Shown here piece by piece: positions 2,377 through 53,539 of a stretch of 64,000 bases of DNA. The notes under the pieces are model-generated. The model had not been told where the DNA came from and searched no databases. It was given only the letters and a program-made list of their open reading frames with translations. How positions within the stretch are numbered: position 1 is the first letter of the stretch; the number at the start of each line of letters is the position of its first letter. The stretch covers positions 24,862,001 to 24,926,000 of the forward strand of contig NC_135806.1 of the NCBI RefSeq assembly GCF_964213995.1. The letters are read 5' to 3'. The DNA is from Mustelus asterias (Eukaryota). A program made the position numbers and the translations under genes.

Positions 2377-3455
2377 AGAAGGAGTTGAGTCTGCACCAAC
2401 CCTCCAACAGAGCACCTTCCCCAGGCTCTATCTCCATAACTCCATGCATTTACCCCACTAATCATCCCAATGTAAACATCTTAGGACATTAAGGGGCAAT
2501 TTAGCATGGCCAATCAACCTAACCTGTAGAATGTACAGGGTAAATGGTAGGACTCTGAAGAGTGCAGTTGAACAGAGGGATCTGGGAATACAGGTACAAA
2601 ATTCCCTAAAAGTGACGTCACAGGTGGATAGGGTCATAAAGAGTGCCTTTGGTACATTGGCCTTTATAAATCAGAGTATCGAGTATAAAAGTTGGAGTGT
2701 TATGGTAAGGTTATATAAGGCATTGGTGAGGCCGAATTTGGAGTATTGTGTACAGTTTTGGTCACCTAGTTACAGGAAGGATGTAAATAAGGTTGAAAGA
2801 GTGCAGATAAGGTTCACAAGGATGTTGCCAGGACTTGAGAAGCTGAGTTACAGAGAGAGATTGAATAGGTTGGGACTTTATTCCCTGGAGCGTAGAAGAT
2901 TGAGGGGAGATTTGATAGAGGTGTATAAGATTTTGATGGGTATAGATAGAGTGAATGCAAGCAGGCTTTTTCCGCTGAGGCTAGGGGAGAAAAAAACCAG
3001 AGGGCATGGGTTAAGGGTGAAAGGAGAAAAGTTTAAAGGGAATATTAGGGGGGGCTTCTTCACGCAGAGAGTGGTGGGAGTGTGGAATGAGCTGCCGGAT
3101 AAAGTGGTAAATGCGGGGTCACTTTTAACATTTAAGAAAAACTTGGACGGGTTCATGGATGAGAGGGGTGTGGAAGGATATGGTCCAAGTGCAGGTCAGT
3201 GGGACTAGGCAAAAAATGGTTCGGCACAGACAAGAAGGGCCAAAAGGCCTGTTTCTGAGCTGTAATTTTCTATTGTTCTTTTCTATGGTTCTATCTTTGG
3301 ACTGTGGGTAGTAACAGGAGCACCCGGAGGAAACCCATGCAGACACAGGGTGAATGCGCAGACTCCACAAAGACAGTCACCCAAGGCCGGAATGAAACTC
3401 GGGTCCCTGGCACTGTGAGGCAGCAGTGCTAACTGCTGTGCCACCATGCTGCCCA
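2377..3455 (-). mobile_element. HE1/V-type tRNA-derived SINE, split by a CR1 insertion
   Basis: tRNA-like head (revcomp GGGCAGCATGGTGGCACAGCAGTTAGCACTGCTGCCTCACAG) at ~3410-3455. The body CCTAACCTGTA|TCTTTGGACTGTGGG is interrupted at 2528/3294. Confidence 0.85.
2529..3293 (+). mobile_element. Young 5'-truncated CR1 LINE (RT C-terminus plus 3' UTR)
   Basis: Uninterrupted ORF 2531-3208 (EQRDLG...LYKALVRPNLEYCVQFWSP...LERRRLRGDLIEVYKI...FFTQRVVGVWNELP), the CR1 ORF2 end. Terminal TTCTATGGTTCTA microsatellite. Confidence 0.95.
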
Positions 3456-4635: not shown

Positions 4636-4935
4636 GCCTAGAGTCCAGCACTGCTGCCTCACAGCACCAGAGACCCAAGTTCGATTCCGGCCTCAGGTCA
4701 CTGTCTGTGTGGAGTTTGCACGTTCTTCCTGTGTCTGCGTGGGTTTCCTCCGGGTGCTCCAGTTTCCTCCCACAGTCCGAAAGACGTGTTGGTTAGGTGC
4801 ATTGGCTATGCTAAATTCTCCCTCAGTGTACCCAAACAGGCGCTGGCGTGTGGCAACTAGGGGATTTTCACAGTAACTGCATTGCAGTGTTAATGTAAGC
4901 ATACTTGTGACGCTTATAAATAAACTTTAAACTTT
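4636..4935 (+). mobile_element. HE1/V-type SINE with alternative 3' tail
   Basis: B-box-like GTTCGATTCC and V-type core TGTGTGGAGTTTGCACGTTCT...GGGTTTCCTCCGGGTGCTCC. Tail GGATTTTCACAGTAACT...GTAAGCATACTTGTGAC. Confidence 0.85.
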
Positions 4936-13650: not shown

Positions 13651-14799
13651 GGGCCCGATTTTACCATTGCGTTGCGCCTGTTTTTGGGCACGAAAACTTG
13701 GTAAAGTTGAGCGTGAAGCGAATAGCACGATCCGTGCCCAAATCCGCGCTGATTCCTCCTTTACCAAGGCCCGAAAATGGACGCGATCAGGACCGCGTCT
13801 GAAATGGACGCGGTGCAATTTAAATGGATTTGCATGCATTTAAATTGGCTTAATGAGCTGGACGCCCAAAATTACCGACATTTCCCCCTTTACCATCGCG
13901 TTTTCCCATCCAGATTCGGCGCAAAACAGACATGCTCGGCAAAAATCTGTTTTGGACGTTCTGGCTTCTGAAGGGACAGGTTCAGAGCTTTCAGCGGCTC
14001 TCTGACTCAGATCGGTGGTGGGGGGGAGGGAGGCGGGCCAGAGATGTATCTCTGGTGGTGAGGGGGGTGGGGGGGGAAGGAGGGAGGCCAGATCATTCTC
14101 TGGTAGGCGGGGTGGGGGGCGGGGGGAAGAGGAGGGCCAGATTGTTATCTGGTTGGGGGGGGGGAGGAGGAGGCAGGTCAGATGTATCTCTGGTGGGGGG
14201 GGAGGAGGAGGGAGGCCCGATCATTATCTGGTGAGGGGAGGGGGAGGAGGAGGGCCAGATGTATCTCTGGTGGGGGGGGGAGGAGGAGGGAGGCCCGATC
14301 ATTCTCTGGTGGGGGAGGGGGAGGAGGAGGGCCAGATGGATCTCTGGTGGGGGGGAGAGGAGGCAGGGGGGGTAGGGGTAGGGGGGTCCACTGCCACTCT
14401 GCGGGCGATCGATGGTGGGGAAGTGGGACAGAGGGGTCATGATCAGTCTGGGTAGTGGGGAGAGGTGGGTGGATAAGGGGAACAGTTATGTTATGGTGGT
14501 GGGGGCGATGTCTGTGGGGGCCATCACTTCCAAGCCACTTTACCCGGGCCAGGAGCGATGTGGCAGGGGAGCGTTTTTCAAATTTCTTTTTACTGCACGT
14601 GCACAGTTGAAGGTTCTGATCAGAGCAGCAGCGTATCGGGCCGTGATAAGCCCAGCCCACAGCGCAATTCAGAATCGCTGCTTTTTTTCAGGCAGAGTGT
14701 GTATGCGGGCGCCGGAGAACAGGTTTACAAGTTGGATCTGAATCATGCCCAGAATTTGCATGAATCAGCACTTTGAATTAAAATTGTAAAATCGGGCCC
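13651..14799. mobile_element. Non-autonomous Harbinger-type element (1149 bp), TSD ATT
   Basis: TIRs GGGCCCGATTTTAC / GTAAAATCGGGCCC flanked by a 3-bp duplication ATT. Internal G-rich minisatellite (AGAT...TCTCTGGTGGGGG...GAGG). Confidence 0.88.
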
Positions 14800-24882: not shown

Positions 24883-25124
24883 TGATGCGCTATCAAGAAG
24901 GCGAAAGACGACCGGTGTGCCAATACAAGTGTAGGCTTTTATCCACAACAGAATCAAGAGCAGATCCCAACAAGTAACCGACCTGGACTGAACAAGGGGG
25001 AGGAGACAGCCACCTTTATACTAGGTGCCGAAGGGAGGAACCAAACTGGAAGGGGATGTGTCCAGGTATGACAAGCTCACACAACGGTGGTCCATATAGG
25101 ACAAAGGCACAACTGAGGTCCACA
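24883..25124 (-). repeat. 3' LTR of Gypsy element 1
   Basis: Direct repeat of 29163-29407, preceded by the PPT. The poly(A) signal is mutated to GATAAA. Confidence 0.95.
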
Positions 25125-25175
25125 TTCACCCCTTCCTTTAAAAAAAAACAACACGGGGATGAAGCGGAAACAATA

Positions 25176-28100
25176 TTACAAGTTCAGACGAACCAGTGGC
25201 TTGATACGCCGCCGCGATTGTTGTAGTGCAGGTCGCAGAGTCGTCCGAGCAGGGAGCGATGTCGGCCCAGGCTCCGTACAGTGAGCGTCGAGAGAAGGCG
25301 CCAGATGGTGTGAAGCGGACCGATCCGTCATCCCGTCCAGTCGTCGGGTACTGCGTGGCAACGGCTCTGGCGACTCAAGCGAGCTGTACACAGGGGCGAG
25401 AGGAGTGAGCAGTGGCCCTGGTGGCGTATGGGGAACAGTGGGAACCGGAGCTAGGGGGTGGGGGGCCGCAACAGGCTCTGGGCGCACTACATTGGAGACA
25501 GGGACTGAGGGAGGAAGAGGCGCAGCAAACTCCGAGTGGACAACACCAGGGACTGTGGGGCGGAAGGACGTGGTGACCTCAGGGGCACCCGCGGGTGCCA
25601 AGTCACGGACAGAAACCGTGTCCTCCTGCCCATCAGGGTACGCTACGTAAGCGTATTGAGGATTAGCGTGGAGCAATTGGACCTCCTCGACCAAGGGATC
25701 TGCCTTATGGGTCTGGACATGCTTCCAAAGCAGGATGGGCCCCGGGGACATCAGCCAATCCGGGAGCGAAGTACCCAAGGAGGACATCCTGGGAAACGAA
25801 AACATCCACTTGTGAGGGGTCGTATTGGTCGCTGTGCACAAGAGTGACCTAATGGAATGTAATGCGTCCGGAAGGACGTCTTGCCAACGGCTGACTGGAA
25901 GGCCCCTAGACCGTAACGCTAATAGAACGGCCTTCCAGACGGTTGCGTTCTCCCGCTCTACTTGACCATTGCCCCTGGGGTTATAGCTAGTGGTGTGGCT
26001 GGAGGCAACGCCTTTGGCGAGCAGGTACTGCCTCAGCTCGTCACTCATGAAAGAGGACCCACGATCGCTAGGAACATAGGCTCGGAAGCCGAACAGGGTG
26101 AAGAGCTTATTCAGGGTCCGAATCACTGTAGCCGTGGTCATGTCCGAGCAGGGGAAGGCAAAAGGGAAACGTGAGTATTCATCAATGATATTCAGGAAAT
26201 AAACATTGCAGTTAGAGGGAGGGGGCCTTTAAAATCAATGCTAAGGCGCTCAAACGTGCGAGTGGCCTTTACAAAGTGTGCCCTACCTGGCCGGTAGAAC
26301 TGCGGTTTGCACTCAGCGCAGAACCTGCATTGCCTGGTAATCGTCCGGACTTCCTCGAGGGAGAAGGGCAGGTTACGGGATTTGACAAAATGGAAAAATC
26401 TGGTGACACCCGGATGACAGAGGTCGTTATGGAGGGACTGTAGCTGGTCTAGTTGGGCGCTGGCACATGATCCACGGGACAGGGCATCTAGGGGCTCATT
26501 GAGCTTCCCGGGCCGGTACATGATGTCATATCTGTAGGTGGAGAGCTCAATCCTCCACCGCAAGATCTTGTCATTCTTAATCTTGCCCTTTTGCCTGGTG
26601 TTAAACAGGAAGGCAACTGACCGCTGGTCCGTAATTAAGGTGAATCGTTGGCCCGCAAGATAATGGCGCCAGTGCCGGACGGTTTCCACGATGGCCTGGG
26701 CCTCCTTCCCGACCGAGGAGTGTCGAATCTCAGGGCCTTGTAAGGTCCGGGAAAAGAAGGCCACCGGACGGCCCCTCTGGTTAAGGGTGGTGGCTAGGGC
26801 AAAGTCAGATGCATCACTTTCCACTTGGAATGGGATGGATTCGTCCACAGCATGCATTGCGGCCTTCGCGATGTCCGCTTTGATGTCGTCGAAGGCCCGA
26901 CGGGCCTCCTCCGCCAGGGGAAAAGAGGTCGATTTTAGGAGCGGACGGGCTTTATCCGCGTAACGGGGAACCCACTGGGCATAATAGAAGAAGAAGCCCA
27001 GGCATCTCCTCAGTGCTTTGAGGGTAGTAGGAAGGGGAAGCTGCATAAGGGGACGCATACGGGCTGGGTCGGGGCTAAGGACACCATTTTCTATCACGTA
27101 CCCAAGGATGGCGAGGCGGCGTGTCCGGAAAACACACTTCGCCTCATTATATGTGAGGTTCAGGAGAGTGGCCGTACGTAGGAATTTTTGTAGGTTGGCA
27201 TCATGATCCTGCAGGTCATGGCCGCAGATGGTGACGTTATCCAGATACGGGAAAGTGGCCCGTAGCCCATGCTGGTCTACCATTTGATCCATGGCCCGCT
27301 GGAAGACTGAGACCCCATTGGTGACACCAAAGGGGACTCGGAGGAACTGGTAGAGGCGGCCATCCGCCTCAAAGGCAGTATATGGGCGATCCTCCGAGCG
27401 GATAGAGAGCTGGTGGTAAGCCGATTTCAAATCGATCATCGAGAAAACCCTATAGTGCGCGATGCGGTTGACTATGTCCGCGATACGGGGAAGAGGATAC
27501 GCATCTAGTTGGGTATACCTGTTTATGGTCTGGCTGTAGTCAATCACCATGCGGTGTTTCTCCCCCAATTTAACTACGACCACTTGCGCCCTCCAGGGGC
27601 TGGTGCTGGCCTGGATAATCCCTTCCCGGAGCAACCGTTGTACCTCGGACCGAAAGAAGGCCCAGTCATCCGCACTATAGCGCCTACTCTTGGTGGCTAT
27701 AGGCCTACAATCCGGGGTGAGGTTATCAAATAAGGCGGGGCGGGTGATCTTGAGGGTCGAGAGACTGCAGGTGGTGCGCGAGGGGCGCTGCAGTGACGGC
27801 GCCTTGCAGACGGAAAGCGGGGGGTAAGGGCCATCATACTGCAGGGTGACGCTCCTATGATGGCTGAGGAAATCTAACCCCAGCAGTACAGCTGCGCAGA
27901 GTCGCGGCAGCACAAGGAGCCGAAAACACTCGTAGACTGTGCCCTGTACCGTCAGCGTCACCAAGCAGCACCCGAGGACCTCCACCGAGTGGGAATTCGA
28001 GGCCATGGAGATGGTCTGGCTCCAGGGTCGCATGGGAAGGGCATATTGACGCACTGTGCAAGGGTGTATAAAACTTTCCGTGCTCCCACAGTTGAACAGG

Positions 28101-29137
28101 CAGTTTTCTGCATGACCATTTACGTTGATCTCCATTATTGACTTGGAGAGTTGAAGAGGCTGCGACTGGTCCAGGCAAATCGATGCCACCGTCGAATCAA
28201 AGAAGAATCTGTCTTCGTTGCCGTCTGATGACGTCACGGATAAAGCTTCCTGCTCAGCGCGTCTTGATGCCAGTCTCAAAGATGGCGATTCCCGCACTTC
28301 CGGTGACCGCATCAAAGATGGCGATTCCCGCACTTCCGGTGACCGCAATAAAGATGGCGATTCGCGCGCAGCCGCCGCCTCCATTAAAGATGGCTGCGCC
28401 CGCGGAACACACGTGGCGCCACGAGGCTTCGGAAGCGGCTTTGACCGGCAGACTTTAGCGAAGTGGCCTAGCTTACCGCATCCGGAGCAAATCGCGTCCT
28501 TCGCCGGGCAGCGACGCCGGGGGTGCTTGGGTAGGCCGCAAAAGTATCATTTGGGCCCCGCCGGAACAGCCGTCGCGGTGGAGCCGTCAGTAGAACGGGA
28601 TGCAAGGTATGACCCGAGATTGTGAGAGGCCGTTTCTAACGTTTCAGCCATCGTGGCTGTTCTTCGGAGATCTAGGTCATCTTGTTCCAGCAGGCGCTGC
28701 CGGATGTATGTAGACTCAATGCCCGCGACGTAGGCGTCGCGGATCAGGTCCTCCGTGTTCTGAGCTGCTGTAACAGCCTTACAGTCACAAGCTCGAGCTA
28801 GGACCCGCAGGGCGCGCAGAAATTGGGCGCACAATTCTCCTGGCTGCTGCTTGCGGGTAGTTAGGAGATGTCTGGCGTAAACCACGTTAGGGCTCTTTCG
28901 GAACTGCCCTTTTAGGAGTTCGATAGCGTCCGCGTATGTAGCAGCGTCCCGGAAGATTCCATAGACTGCTTCGCTTACCCGGGCATGGAGCACGTGGAGT
29001 TTAGCGTCGTCGGTGTCGATGGCCGTAGCGGTGTCGACGAATGCTACGAAGCAGTCCAGCCAATGATCGAATTTATCAGAGGCTCCAACCTCTTGAGGGT
29101 CTAATGCTATCTTGTCAGGTTTTAGAAACTGCTCCAT
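25176..29137 (-). pseudogene. Gypsy gag-pol polyprotein, originally one ORF, with one nonsense codon (28547-28549) and one frameshift (~26200)
   Basis: Gag MEQFLKPDK...; zinc-knuckle region *YFCGLPKHPRRRC / CSGCGKLGHFAKVC; protease CLFNCGSTESF; RT IDLKSAYHQ...PFGVTNG...YLDN; RNase H ESDASD...TDQ; integrase HNDLCH...CRFC, DFKGP, SDRGSSF, NGQVER. ORFs 28547-29176 and 26192-28384 are in the same frame. Confidence 0.92.
28278..28395. repeat. 36-bp tandem repeat between gag and protease (SPSLxRSPEVRE)
   Basis: AAAGATGGC recurs at 28278, 28314, 28350 and 28386. Confidence 0.9.
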
Positions 29138-29162
29138 GCTGGTCAACTGTTGTGAATAAAAT

Positions 29163-29407
29163 TGATGCGCTATCAATAAGGCGAAAGACTACCGGTGTGC
29201 CAATACAAGTGTAGGCTTTTATTCACAACAGAATCAGGAACAGATCCCAACAAGTAACCGACCTGGACTGAACAAGGGGGAGGAGACAGCCACCTTTATA
29301 CTAGGTGCCGAGGGGAGGAACCAAACTGGAAGGGAATGTGTCCAGGTGTGACAAGCACACACAACGGTGGTCCATATAGGACAAAGGCACAACTGAGGTC
29401 CACCACA
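29163..29407 (-). repeat. 5' LTR of Gypsy element 1
   Basis: TATAAA (29295-29300, minus) and AATAAA (29218-29223, minus). Confidence 0.95.
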
Positions 29408-48210: not shown

Positions 48211-48497
48211 TGTATTGTAGGGTGTTGGGTATCATTTGGTAGGTGTTAATGAAGTCTTCCTAGTCTTAAGTAGGTTAACTGTATATATTTATTAAGCATA
48301 AGAACAATGTATATATAGTACAGGGTTCAAGCTAAGAACTGTCTCCATACATGTTGTGCACAAGACTCTGTCTAACACTAGACTCACCACCTCCCCACCC
48401 CGCCTCCGAGGTGCAGGTCACATGTTCTCTTACATCATTGTGTGGGCAGTACATCAGTCCCACATTAACCCTATATATGCTAGACCTTTACACTACA
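48211..48497 (-). mobile_element. Short solo LTR (287 bp) inserted in the LINE
   Basis: TGTATTGTA ... TACACTACA inverted ends, minus-strand AATAAA at ~48288, apparent TCA duplication. Confidence 0.65.
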
Positions 48498-48543
48498 TCA
48501 TGGACAGATGCATCTGCCATGGGTAGATTGGTGAGGACAAAGT

Positions 48544-51324
48544 TGTGGTGAACCACTGTAACACTGTCTGTGTGTGGGATGTGCCTGGGCACGCCCCTGC
48601 TGCCTTGGTCCGGGGCTCCGCTCTCCTCGGGGTATAAAGGTGGCTGCTCTCCGCCCCTTTGCCTCAGTTCGAGTTGGCCATCGGTTTGGGAGTGCTTCTG
48701 TTCTTGTTAATAAAAGCCTGTTGTTCCGCAACCTCTAGTCTTTGCGTGTATCAATGGTGCATCAATTTTATTAACAACATTGTTGAAATGGAGCAACTCC
48801 TGAAACCTGACAAATTGGATCTGGATCCGCAGGCAGTTGGCACCTCTAATTCTTTTGATCACTGGCTGCACTGTTTTGAGACCTTCATCACCTCCTCCTC
48901 CTCAATCGTCGTAACAGACATAGACAAACTGCATGTGCTCCACGCCCGCGTCAGCGCTCACGTCTTCGCGATGATCCGCGACGCACAGACCTACCAGGAG
49001 GCAATCGATCTCCTCAAGGGCCAATACAACCGGCAACCGAACGAAGTCTACGCCAGACATCTGCTGGCCACTCGCAGACAGCAGCCCGGGGAATCAACTG
49101 AGCAATTCCTGCGCAAATTGCGTGCACTCGGCAGAGCCTGCAACTGCAAGGCCGTTTCAGCCGCCCAAAACGCCGACGACCTGATCAGAGATGCCTTTGT
49201 CGCAGGCATCAGGTCAACCTATATCCAGCAGCGCCTGCTGGAACAAGGTGGGCTGGACCTTAAGAAAACTGTGGAACTTGCCAGCTCGCTGGAGGTGGCT
49301 TTCCGGAACCTCGAGGCCTACACCCCCAACCACGAGGGCGCACTGTGGACACCGTGACCGCAGCCATCGCTGTACCCAGGAGGACCGCAAACCTACTCCA
49401 TGCCCCGTCCCGAAGTCGAACTGACCATTGCGTCAGTCCCCGGAGGCCCGAGATGCTACTTCTGTGGCCTGGAGAAGCACCCACGACGACGCTGCCCGGC
49501 GAAAGACGCGATCTGCTCTGGCTGTGGTAAGAAGGGTCACTACCTGAAGGTTTGCAGGGCAAAATCGGCCCCCAGGCCCAGCAGTGCCACGTGCGATCCG
49601 CGGGAGGGACCATCGTCGACGCCATCGACCACGTGCGATCCGCGGGTGCCGCCATTTTGGATGCCAGCAGCCGCGTGCGACCCACGGAGGTCGCCATCTT
49701 GGACGCCATCAGCCATGTGCGACCATGGGTGGACGCCATCAGCCATGGGTGACATCAGCCGACTCACGGGTGCCGCCATTTTGGGAACCGTCCACCGCAT
49801 CACCTAATCCGACAGTGGCCTCGGTCGCGTTGGACCAGTCCAGGCCTCACCAGCTCGTCTGGTCGATGATGGGCATCAAGGCAAACGGCCACACTACTAA
49901 CTGCTTATTTGACAGTGGGAGTACGGAGAGTTTCATCCACCCTAACACGGTGAGGCGCTATGCACTGCCAGTACTGCCCATGCAGCAATCAATCTCTATG
50001 GCTTCGACGTCCCGGTCAGTGAATGTCCTTGTGTACTGTGTAGCGAATCTGATTGTACGGGGCACGGTGTACAACAAGTGCAGGCTCCTCATGCTGCCAC
50101 AGCTCTGCGCTGCCGTACTACTGGGGCTAGATTTCATGTGCCACCTCGGGAGCGTCACTATGGTGTATAATGGGCCTTTTCCCTCAATCTCCGTCCAAAA
50201 TCCACAGCTAACAGACCAGCCACCGCGCACCACCTGTGGTGTCACAACCCTCAAAGTCGCCCCTCCCTTGCTTTTTAAGCACCTCACCCCCGACTGCAAG
50301 CCCATTGCCACCAAAAGCAGACGGTACAGTGCTGGTGATAGAGCGTTCATCAAGTCCGAGGTGCGACACCTCTTGGGGGAGGGGATCATTGAGGCCAGTA
50401 CCAGTCCCTGGAGAGCCCAAGTGGTGGTTGTCAAGACTGGGGAGAAACTTCGCATGGTCATTGACTACAGTCGGACCATCAACCGATACACGCAGCTGGA
50501 CGCGTATCCCCTTCCCCGCATATCTGACATGGTTAATTAGATTGCGCAATATCGGGTGTTCTCCGCCATTGATTTGAAGTCTGCATACCACCAGCTCCAT
50601 ATCCGCCCGGAAGACCGCCAATACACTGCCTTCGAGGCGGATGGCCGTCTCTACCACTTCCTTCGGGTCCCCTTCGGCATCACCAACGGGGTCTCGGTTT
50701 TCCAGCGTGAGATGGACTGAATGGTGGACCAGAACGGGCTGCGGGCCACCTTCCCGTACCTGGATAACGTCACCATCTGCGGCCACGATCAGCTCAAAAC
50801 GTTGTCCATGATGCACCAGAGTCACAGCATGCTCATTTAGCCCCTGTGTACGACACGCCTGAGCCCAGGAGCAGCATCCACATACCCGGCAGTCTGAAGG
50901 CGCTACGGATGGCACCACCGGTTATGGATTGACGCCTGACTCATCGCCGTGGCCTCCTGAACCGGCACCATGGCTGACACTGTGGCGGTCGCTGCGGCAG
51001 ATCAAGCCCCCGGAGAGACTGAACTTATAATTTGAATCAATAACTTGTGACTGTCATTTCCACCACCTCGCCCCTGCTGAACTCTTTTTAAACAGGGGGT
51101 GAATGTGGTGAACCACTGTAACACTGTCTGTGTGTGGGATGTGCCTGGGCACGCCCCTGCTGCCTTGGTCCGGGGCTCCACCCTCCTCGGGTTATAAAGG
51201 TGGCTGCTCTCCGCCCCTTTGCCTCAGTTCGAGTTGGCCATCGGTTTGGGAGTGCTTCTGTTCTTGTTAATAAAAGCCTGTTGTTCCGCAACCTCTAGTC
51301 TTTGCAAGTATCAATGGTGCATCA
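48544..51324 (+). mobile_element. Internally deleted Ty3/Gypsy LTR retrotransposon (2781 bp), TSD AAAGT
   Basis: 221-bp LTRs at 48544-48764 and 51104-51324 (5 differences by eye). TSD at 48539-48543 and 51325-51329. PPT AAACAGGGGGTGAA. Gag, PR (CLFDSGSTESF) and RT to YLDNVTICGHD are present; RNase H and integrase core are absent. Confidence 0.96.
48788..50790 (+). pseudogene. Gypsy gag-pro-RT, disrupted
   Basis: MEQLLKPDKLDLDP...; stops at 49355, 50538 and 50718; frameshift near 49750-49800; CYFCGLEKHPRRRC / CSGCGKKGHYLKVC. Confidence 0.9.
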
Positions 51325-53539
51325 AAAGTCTAGTAGGTTTTCCCTCTTTTTGGTTTCCTTCCAACTTGTTGCAGGCCCTGCCTGGCAGATTTGTCCAGCT
51401 TGGTCACTGGTGGTGCTGCTGAGCCTCTCTTGGCCCCAACCATAATAAATTCTGTGCTCTTGCCATCCTCAATATCCTGGTGTTAAATATAGAGGTCCAA
51501 TTCATCAGTTGAGGAAATGCAGTTTGCAGGATGAGCAGGAGCTTTTCTTGCTCATGACTGACCTGATGCCATGACACTTCATAGGGTCTGATGTCAATGC
51601 TGATTTGCCAGTGCAGAATGCTGGCATAGCATGACAGGCTAAATGTCTCTTTCTCTGCTCCAACCATTCTGTGGTCCCAATTTCACATTCAGCTAACAAA
51701 TACCATGTTTGTAGTTATGTGATGTATCCTACAACAACATTCCTTTCATCTTATCGTGTAATCAAATACAAGAGAACCCACTGTATCAAGAAACTGGAAG
51801 TCAAATCAGCCCACTTATGTCCCTATAAGGCTGGTAGAATTCCATTAGCATAGGCTCAATGCGTCATCGAATGCAAATCAAACCATTTAAACTTGACATT
51901 CAATGGCATTACCATCAGTGAATCTACCATCAACAGTATCTTGGAGTGTCACCATTACCCATTTACTGTTGACCAAAAATTTAACTGGATGAGCCACATA
52001 AGTGCTGTGAGCACAAGAGCAAGTCAGACGCTGGGTATTCTGCAGCAAGTAACTCACCTCCTGAACCTTGTAGTGGAAGAGTGGGGTGAATAACTAAAAC
52101 AAAGACACGTTATTTTTTTAAAATTCCAGTCTGTATTAAGCCCTTTATTCAGATGTTTTATTTAATCTATTTATTATTTCTGTACATGTATATATTTTAA
52201 AAAATCACTTACTATAATTGACTGGGCGCCGAGCAATACATAGTATTGCGATAACTCACTTACCAATACAAGAGTAATGTGGGTGAAAAATATTGTGACC
52301 ACCTGAGACTGATGTGGGGAAAGCTGATTTGGAGGAAGCTATGCATCAGTTGGTTAACTAGATGACTGATGGTGGGCAATCATCAGCCTCGATATGCTTG
52401 TTAATATGTTGTTTAAGTATAGTGTAAGAAAAAGTCATATCCAAATTATAGCTGCAAGCTTTGACATCAGATTCTGAACATCCTGTGCTAGGTTTAAATA
52501 TTATACGTACATTGCTTTGATGCAACACATCACCATTGTTTAATCTGTAGCAGACTTAGACTCAATAGGAGCCAGGTGGTATCTACAGAACTGCTGACCC
52601 CACTTTTCTGCTCCAGAAACCATTCTATAATTCTGCCAGGAGACATACACAATGTTATTTCTGACAGGAGAAGCAGAGATGAAGTGAAAAGGAAAATGTC
52701 TGAAACATTACTGTGTTTTGGTTGAAGCCAAATACAGTTCCAGCCGCAATTTTATTTAAAACTACGGAAAGCTGATTTCAGCCTTTAATAGGAAGTTATT
52801 GTGGAATTCAGAGTCCTAGAAAGTGCTCGAAAGTGGATTATGGGGTGTAACTTTGGGAGGTTAAGTGCTGACCTGTATAAAATACCTCTTATTGCACTCT
52901 CTGTGGTTAGCAGTTTGATAACATCCAGATGGTTGTCAGTAACTACCTTGAAGATCAGAATGGATTCATGTGTTGCCAGATCTTGTCAGTGGGACAGACT
53001 CCTTATGGAGCGTTGTGCGGATTTTCAATATAAGCATTGAAATGACTGTACCAGAAGTGAGCTGGTTCCAAGGGGCTAAATTAGATGGCGCAGTAGACAG
53101 TGAAGATTTGAGCATTAAGTTGCAAAGGAACATTGATAAATTAAGTCAGTGGGCAAAACTGTTGCAGATGGAGTTTAATGTGCAAAAAAAGTAAGGTCAT
53201 TCACTTTGGACCTGAGAAAGATTAATCAGTGTTTTCTAAATGGTGAGAGATTAGGAACTATGGATGAGCGAAGATTAGAGGTCCAAGTACAGAAATCACT
53301 AAAAGCTAGTGGATATACAAAAAAAACCTGAAAAGGCTAACAGAATAGTGACCTTTATTTCAAGATGATTAGACCACAAAGCGGTTGAAGTTACATCACA
53401 GCTGTACAGAGCTCTATCTGACCTATCTGGAGTGCTGTATTCACTGAGGGCACTACACCTTAGGGAGGATATTCTGGTCTTAGGGATGGAGGTGGAAATT
53501 TGGTGGGATGAGGGTGCAGTACAACACCCAAAATGGTAC

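Follow-up and report, generated by a model that had tools for sequence, protein, structure and literature searches.

Two related Ty3/Gypsy elements and their foldback

The window analysed in this study is a 64-kb stretch of DNA that carries two related Ty3/Gypsy elements, element 2 on the plus strand and element 1 on the minus strand (Table 1). The features of this class, namely the gag-PR-RT-RNase H-IN order, TG...CA LTRs, a polypurine tract (PPT) and a target-site duplication, were found across the window elements and their relatives. The two elements are 61% identical in gag and approximately 69–73% identical in DNA sequence around the LTR, and the hexamer in the 3′ LTR of element 1 reads GATAAA. 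Both carry YxDN instead of YxDD as the reverse transcriptase (RT) catalytic motif (at ~50450-50570 on the plus strand for element 2, and in the minus-strand RT of element 1). Element 2 is a dead, internally deleted copy that still carries the pairing signature discussed below. In both elements, short tandem repeats separate the zinc knuckles from the protease (49578-49784 on the plus strand and the gag-pol junction of element 1). The window also contains many dispersed SINE-like repeats (3293-3455, 4647-4815, 14066-14370 and further copies) and a G-rich 38-39 nt tandem array.

Table 1. Coordinates of the two elements and their features in the 64-kb window; primer, cut, start site and promoter entries are predictions.
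Feature	Position	Strand	Basis or remark
Element 1	24883-29407	-	gag, PR, RT, RNase H, IN, interrupted by stops and frameshifts; LTRs 96.3% identical
Element 1 foldback, 15 bp	29147-29231	-	LTR arm 29231-29217 with PBS 29161-29147
Element 2	48544-51324	+	LTRs 97.7% identical; 5-bp target-site duplication
Target-site duplication (5 bp)	left 48539-48543, right 51325-51329	+	sequence
Element 2 5′ LTR, TG...CA, 221 bp	48544-48764	+	97.7% match to 3′ LTR
Element 2 TATA-like box TATAAAG, also in element 1	48633-48639	+	putative promoter function
Initiator-like TCAGTT	48664-48669	+	predicted start A 48666
LTR arm, predicted self-primer	48704-48715	+	AATAAA 48709-48714; predicted cut after 48715 (between A and GCC)
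Rest of R and U5: loop	48716-48764	+	putative strong-stop DNA template
Single unpaired spacer base, LTR end to PBS	48765	+	
Primer binding site without TGG	48766-48777	+	exact complement of 48704-48715
Element 2 gag	48788-49558	+	in-frame stop 49355-49357 precedes two CCHC knuckles
Element 2 protease and RT remnant, interrupted	49548-50790	+	motif YLDN; RNase H and most of integrase gone
Element 2 polypurine tract	51090-51103	+	
Element 2 3′ LTR	51104-51324	+	same arm 51264-51275, no PBS partner behind

The LTR arm of element 2, TTGTTAATAAAA (48704-48715), is followed after a gap of 50 nt by its exact reverse complement (48766-48777). Since the LTR end is set by the 3′ LTR and the target-site duplication, the 3′ arm begins after a one-base spacer. 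For the bases from LTR end +2 onwards, the element 2 LTR holds a complement of 12 nt, whereas 8 nt was the maximum in 5000 dinucleotide shuffles of this LTR; the fold of the whole leader showed a modest excess over shuffles (z -1.88; 8/200). The perfect 12-bp pairing one base past the LTR end, as described in the initial annotation, was confirmed by the sequence, the LTR boundaries and the shuffles. The replacement of a G-C pair in element 1 by T-A in element 2 was likewise recovered, as the two 12-mers, when aligned on the hexamer, differ at this one pair.

The initial annotation went further and took this swap as independent within-window evidence that the pairing is under selection. The elements are related, so there is one comparison and one swap, and a lone swap is weak evidence: by our estimate, it would occur by chance in ~1 in 36 cases (about 3%), given one change per 12-nt arm with the two changes hitting partner positions and staying complementary. 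What survives of that argument is the covariation across many families presented below, which can itself come from copying. The 40 variant places listed from the contigs of four runs (74 more lie beyond the listing) include none in either arm, 4 in the loop and 4 directly past the primer binding site (PBS), which hints weakly at conservation of the arms among shark copies. No RNA record carrying element 2 was listed, an outcome that says nothing about its expression.

The pairing across families

Related loci were collected with a gag-based scan that was blind to LTR sequence, which yielded 58 metagenome loci, or 60 with the two window elements. Fifteen of the 60 were dropped because they were without a gag start or enough upstream DNA, and 45 were kept. 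In a fixed-window test with windows set from the ATG, 27 of the 45 loci scored at least 9 compared to 4.2% of 722 random windows, none of which reached a score of 12. A second, wider window was added after two long leaders were seen, and the controls were given it too. The other 18 of the 45 loci scored below 9 and, in a post hoc judgement, are decayed, deleted, mismatched or mis-anchored. A separate set of 8 loci came from an RT-based scan; all five with gag upstream DNA pair over 10–14 bp, and three new families were added in this way. One contig, L059 (4023 nt), is a permuted single-LTR contig in a bacterial genome bin, like L060-L066, and is probably misbinned animal DNA; the junction remains unpaired here, with T as the spacer base. 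The L002 copy is inserted within a 36-nt tandem satellite.

To compare families, each of 13 was represented by its first member, the score not being a criterion. The complement score of each family with its own LTR averaged 11.1, compared to 6.7 for the 156 cross-family pairs (maximum 11), and a difference of this size was reached in 0 of 100000 permutations. At LTR end +2, at least 10 of 12 pairs were found in 15 of 16 families, in at least one member each, and the sixteenth (L031) is decayed and retains 9 of 12. The LTR end was fixed independently of the pairing by the 3′ LTR in 6 families and was placed by motif in the others; in this LTR-end-anchored comparison it is off by about one base in L025, L046, L050 and L060. 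Such a match could be a functionless by-product, generated if template switching or gene conversion homogenises the arms or if AT-rich sequences match by chance. Both arms are AT-rich, and the element 1 LTR scores 11 on the element 2 PBS, so the match is partly shared ancestry. However, the cross-family, shuffled and random-position controls all lie well below the observed values, and the register relative to the LTR end is fixed across families with a gag identity of only about 30–60%. We regard a by-product as barely credible.

For the analysis of covariation, 12 representatives hand-picked as well preserved were aligned with MAFFT and the alignment was cut around the arms; L016 and L059 are misregistered in it but were kept. 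On these 12 rows RNAalifold, unprompted, returned 14 pairs that form the same helix, with double changes in 10 of the 14. For the same chosen rows, the covariation score was 0.535 compared to 0.163 +/- 0.033 for shuffled alignments, and pairing reached 87.5% in the true register and 31–43.5% in slid registers. The multiple-alignment check for covariation that the initial annotation had proposed was thereby carried out on these 12 rows, and the arms change together. The pairing feature is real and lineage-wide and, as judged from the sequences, it is actively maintained, given the covariation across many families. A gag tree of 16 rows supports only L012 with L014 and L010 with L037 and leaves the rest mostly unresolved (rows L059 and L031 are out of frame, and their long branches are meaningless). 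Thus, independent changes are not countable.

A probable tRNA-free primer site and the alternatives to it

A tRNA-primed LTR element with a TGG-type PBS was ruled out, as TGG was found within 8 nt of the LTR end in none of 31 loci. The letters of the PBS change with the LTR of each family (half-tRNA primers are outside the scope of the TGG check), and Rfam returned no match in 48400-49000. Since no TGG stands behind the LTR and the 3′ arm occupies the position of a PBS, the arm is best described as a putative tRNA-free primer binding site. Across the 16 families, the base after the LTR arm is never paired and the spacer to the PBS is one base. The LTR arm is directly followed by GC in 13 of the 16 and ends in AATAAA or ATTAAA in 11 of the 16, with a helix of 11–17 bp and a loop of 28–64 nt between the arms. 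This geometry is that of a predicted primer whose 3′ end points into U5. An in-silico rule for self-primers, given in the available text of PMC6317226, calls for a complement to the element's own 5′ LTR of at least 10 bp that starts 0–5 bp after it; the window elements have 12 and 15 bp, in line with the pairs counted in 15 of the 16 families. In L010 (15-125) and L037, ~150 nt before the gag ATG, the LTRs are only ~90 nt long and have no canonical poly(A) hexamer. In the leaders of L002, L018 and L032 the PBS complement reaches or enters the gag ATG, so that the whole leader is primer site.

We consider it likely that the 3′ arm is the PBS of a tRNA-independent Ty3/Gypsy lineage, with the LTR arm as its predicted primer. 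TATA/Inr spacing in element 2 predicts a start that lies 33 nt downstream of the TATA box and 38 nt upstream of the arm, although only the two window elements and 1 of 28 other loci have a TATA box so placed. The primer is probably internal, ~38 nt into the transcript, with its end at the poly(A) signal. The transcript would start in the 5′ LTR, and its R segment up to the poly(A) signal would fold back across the loop onto the PBS. RNase H would cut the RNA at the helix end (between A and GC in most families), before the always-unpaired base, leaving a 3′-OH from which RT would copy the spacer base and U5 back to the cut, ~50 nt. The strong-stop DNA would jump to the 3′ end via the short segment that separates the poly(A) signal from the poly(A) site, and plus-strand synthesis would copy the primer back into the PBS, helping the arms stay matched. 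Where the arms contain AAUAAA or AUUAAA, the helix would form only at the 5′ LTR and probably hide the signal there too.

Self-priming could also be achieved by the identical arm in the 3′ R, either end-to-end or on a second packaged RNA, or by an LTR-derived small RNA acting in trans. The two LTR arms of element 2 are identical and so indistinguishable by sequence, and both copying and covariation would follow from such an arrangement too. On the other hand, the 5′ arm lies only a loop's length from the PBS and should fold first, and priming by a 3′ arm would require trimming of the tail at that same base. This variant has, in our judgement, a slim chance of being correct.

Priming by the 5′ arm also bears on how covariation is to be read. 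During plus-strand synthesis the primer is copied into the PBS, and a primer-copied PBS is retained in about half of Tf1 cDNA, according to the available portions of PMC7175516 and PMC11042837. Since plus-strand DNA ends in a primer-copied PBS, a self-primer can rewrite its own PBS. A change in the LTR arm is then copied into the PBS in one step, and therefore covariation need not mean selection on each change. G-U pairs, which are well tolerated in selected RNA helices, occupy 1 of 168 cells of the alignment (whose 12 rows were selected as pairing well) and, in the set of 27 loci, 2 of 16 non-Watson-Crick cells, and the G-C/T-A swap in the window is a double transversion. Copying would account better than stepwise selection on the helix for so few G-U pairs and so many double transversions, and it presupposes that the arm is the primer. 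At helix position 6, the same A-C mismatch occurs in L010 and L037, in which two neighbouring pairs have swapped; primer copying should erase this mismatch, which argues against copying as the sole cause. An A in the LTR opposite a C in the PBS is the commonest mismatch overall (6 of 16, at helix positions 1–11, 27 loci). These A-C mismatches may reflect A-to-I editing of the primer or ordinary transitions, the numbers being too small to tell. Possible copies of the PBS behind 3′ LTRs were also considered, and the apparent extensions in L001, L006, L009, L042 and L063 were rejected as chance matches to target-site duplications or flank.

Alternatively, the main function of the helix would be to mask the poly(A) signal in the 5′ LTR; ordinary selection would keep the helix and something else would provide the primer. 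Only the 5′ LTR has the PBS partner behind it, and the hexamer is therefore predicted closed at this end and more open at the other. Among 14 loci with two LTRs, 9 show an opening cost for the hexamer of 5.2–7.9 kcal/mol in the 5′ context compared to 0.3–3.1 kcal/mol in the 3′ context; the cost is 2.4–2.6 kcal/mol in two loci with mismatched arms, and in L061, L063 and L064 the AATAAA of the loop was scored rather than the arm hexamer. The frequent AATAAA or ATTAAA at the arm end also speaks for a hiding role, and there is a precedent in the HIV-1 polyA hairpin, likewise an AAUAAA-containing helix that is able to damp 5′ LTR polyadenylation (PMC2645353, in the text available). The HIV hairpin lies within R and forms at both ends, whereas the partner here lies outside the LTR, in the PBS position, and at the 5′ end only. 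Several observations do not fit hiding as the main function. L012, L014, L010 and L037, the two supported pairs of the gag tree, keep the helix and its register with arms that lack a canonical hexamer. The poly(A) signal, which the initial annotation had made part of the pairing, is thus not essential to it. A one-base register to the LTR end is needless for hiding, no alternative PBS is present, G-U pairs are nearly absent, and the loop of L061, L063 and L064 has a further AATAAA, ~10 nt past the arm, that the PBS does not cover and that stays open. We therefore consider it unlikely that the helix mainly hides the signal. Since the helix is kept without a poly(A) signal in four families, priming rather than hiding would be the shared role. 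Hiding of the 5′ signal is plausible from the predicted opening costs but not general, and the helix is possibly also a 5′-specific poly(A)-signal cover.

Relation to known self-priming elements and implications

In the literature covered, as far as its text was available, self-priming is experimentally shown only for fission-yeast Tf1-type elements and, among animal Gypsy elements, is assigned only to sushi chromoviruses. Tf1 uses its own RNA as primer once RNase H has cleaved it (available portions of PMC7175516, PMC5341516 and bioRxiv 2022.12.06.519325). According to the same portions, Tf1/Tf2 of Schizosaccharomyces pombe, Tj1 and the Tf1/sushi chromoviruses share with the elements studied here the Ty3/Gypsy domain order, a PBS complementary to their own LTR and the lack of TGG. 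However, Tf1/sushi elements have a C-terminal chromodomain in the integrase, whereas all 10 full-length relatives here are without one. Priming would work as in Tf1, but since no chromodomain was found in these relatives, we did not file the lineage under Tf1/sushi. By analogy, Tf1-like self-priming in a chromodomain-free lineage is the best reading, and a probable one. The Tf1 primer is the first 11 nt of the RNA, whereas in element 2 the arm is predicted 38 nt inside the transcript. The lineage also differs from Tf1 in its 11–17 bp helix ending at the poly(A) signal, in its two CCHC knuckles (88 of 120 relatives) and in its YxDN motif (89 of 115 relatives). While Tf1 forms a three-duplex "pretzel", the predicted consensus fold here shows the central helix only, but the loops are unalignable between families. 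Among plants, Tcn1 (Ty3/Gypsy) and TAR (Ty1/copia) are predicted self-primers under the in-silico rule that also describes the elements here (PMC6317226, available text). They differ from the present lineage, which has animal hosts, belongs elsewhere and has an arm tied to AAUAAA.

[quoted passage not shown] Among named gag proteins the nearest, at 89% identity, is from a shark, the best match among solved structures is the Ty3 RT, and the Atlas match for gag is to a generic retrotransposon gag only. No chromo family was detected at E <= 0.01 in any of the 10 full-length relatives scanned (10 among the 120 listed), nor at E <= 0.001 in the integrase frame of element 1, and an RNase H domain was present in all 10 relatives. 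The knuckle count given above refers to the 120 relatives listed; the RT catalytic motif is YxDN in 89 and YxDD in 26 of the 115 scored relatives (among P0030-P0149). Mag A/B/C, Cigr-1, MolGy and Saci-2, non-chromovirus metazoan Gypsy elements that were compared by description only, likewise have short LTRs with AATAAA and no chromodomain, and the double CCHC gag of this lineage presumably resembles that of Mag-type elements. No self-complementary PBS is given for these elements in the accessible parts of the literature covered. A whole-word literature search for YLDN with reverse transcriptase returned no paper, and three RT motifs had no match in the readable supplements of PMC6238403. No relatives were found in the viral contigs scanned or by the gag scan of genome contigs. 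In the literature searched, no report of self-priming in this lineage was found; Repbase notes and most subscription papers lie outside that search, and a prior description is possible.

Beyond Tf1-like self-priming, we put forward tentatively, as a possibility somewhat short of even, that this is a widespread animal lineage, unrelated to Tf1/sushi, with independently evolved self-priming and an internal primer cut behind the 5′ poly(A) signal. One helix would hide the signal and supply the primer, the cut would destroy the 5′ signal and redefine R as the stretch from the signal to the poly(A) site, and primer copying would keep the arms matched. Under the internal-primer reading, the YxDN reverse transcriptase may be adapted to a self-primed start.

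The possibility that covariation in a PBS arises by copying, not selection, calls for caution where such covariation is interpreted. If these elements do prime themselves, control by tRNA fragments would not reach them, and they would be overlooked by pipelines that demand a tRNA PBS. An internal primer that ends at AAUAAA, if true, would link polyadenylation control and priming in one helix. A second, chromodomain-free lineage would, if true, make tRNA-free priming a recurrent solution, and it would bear on whether hairpin priming is ancestral or derived.
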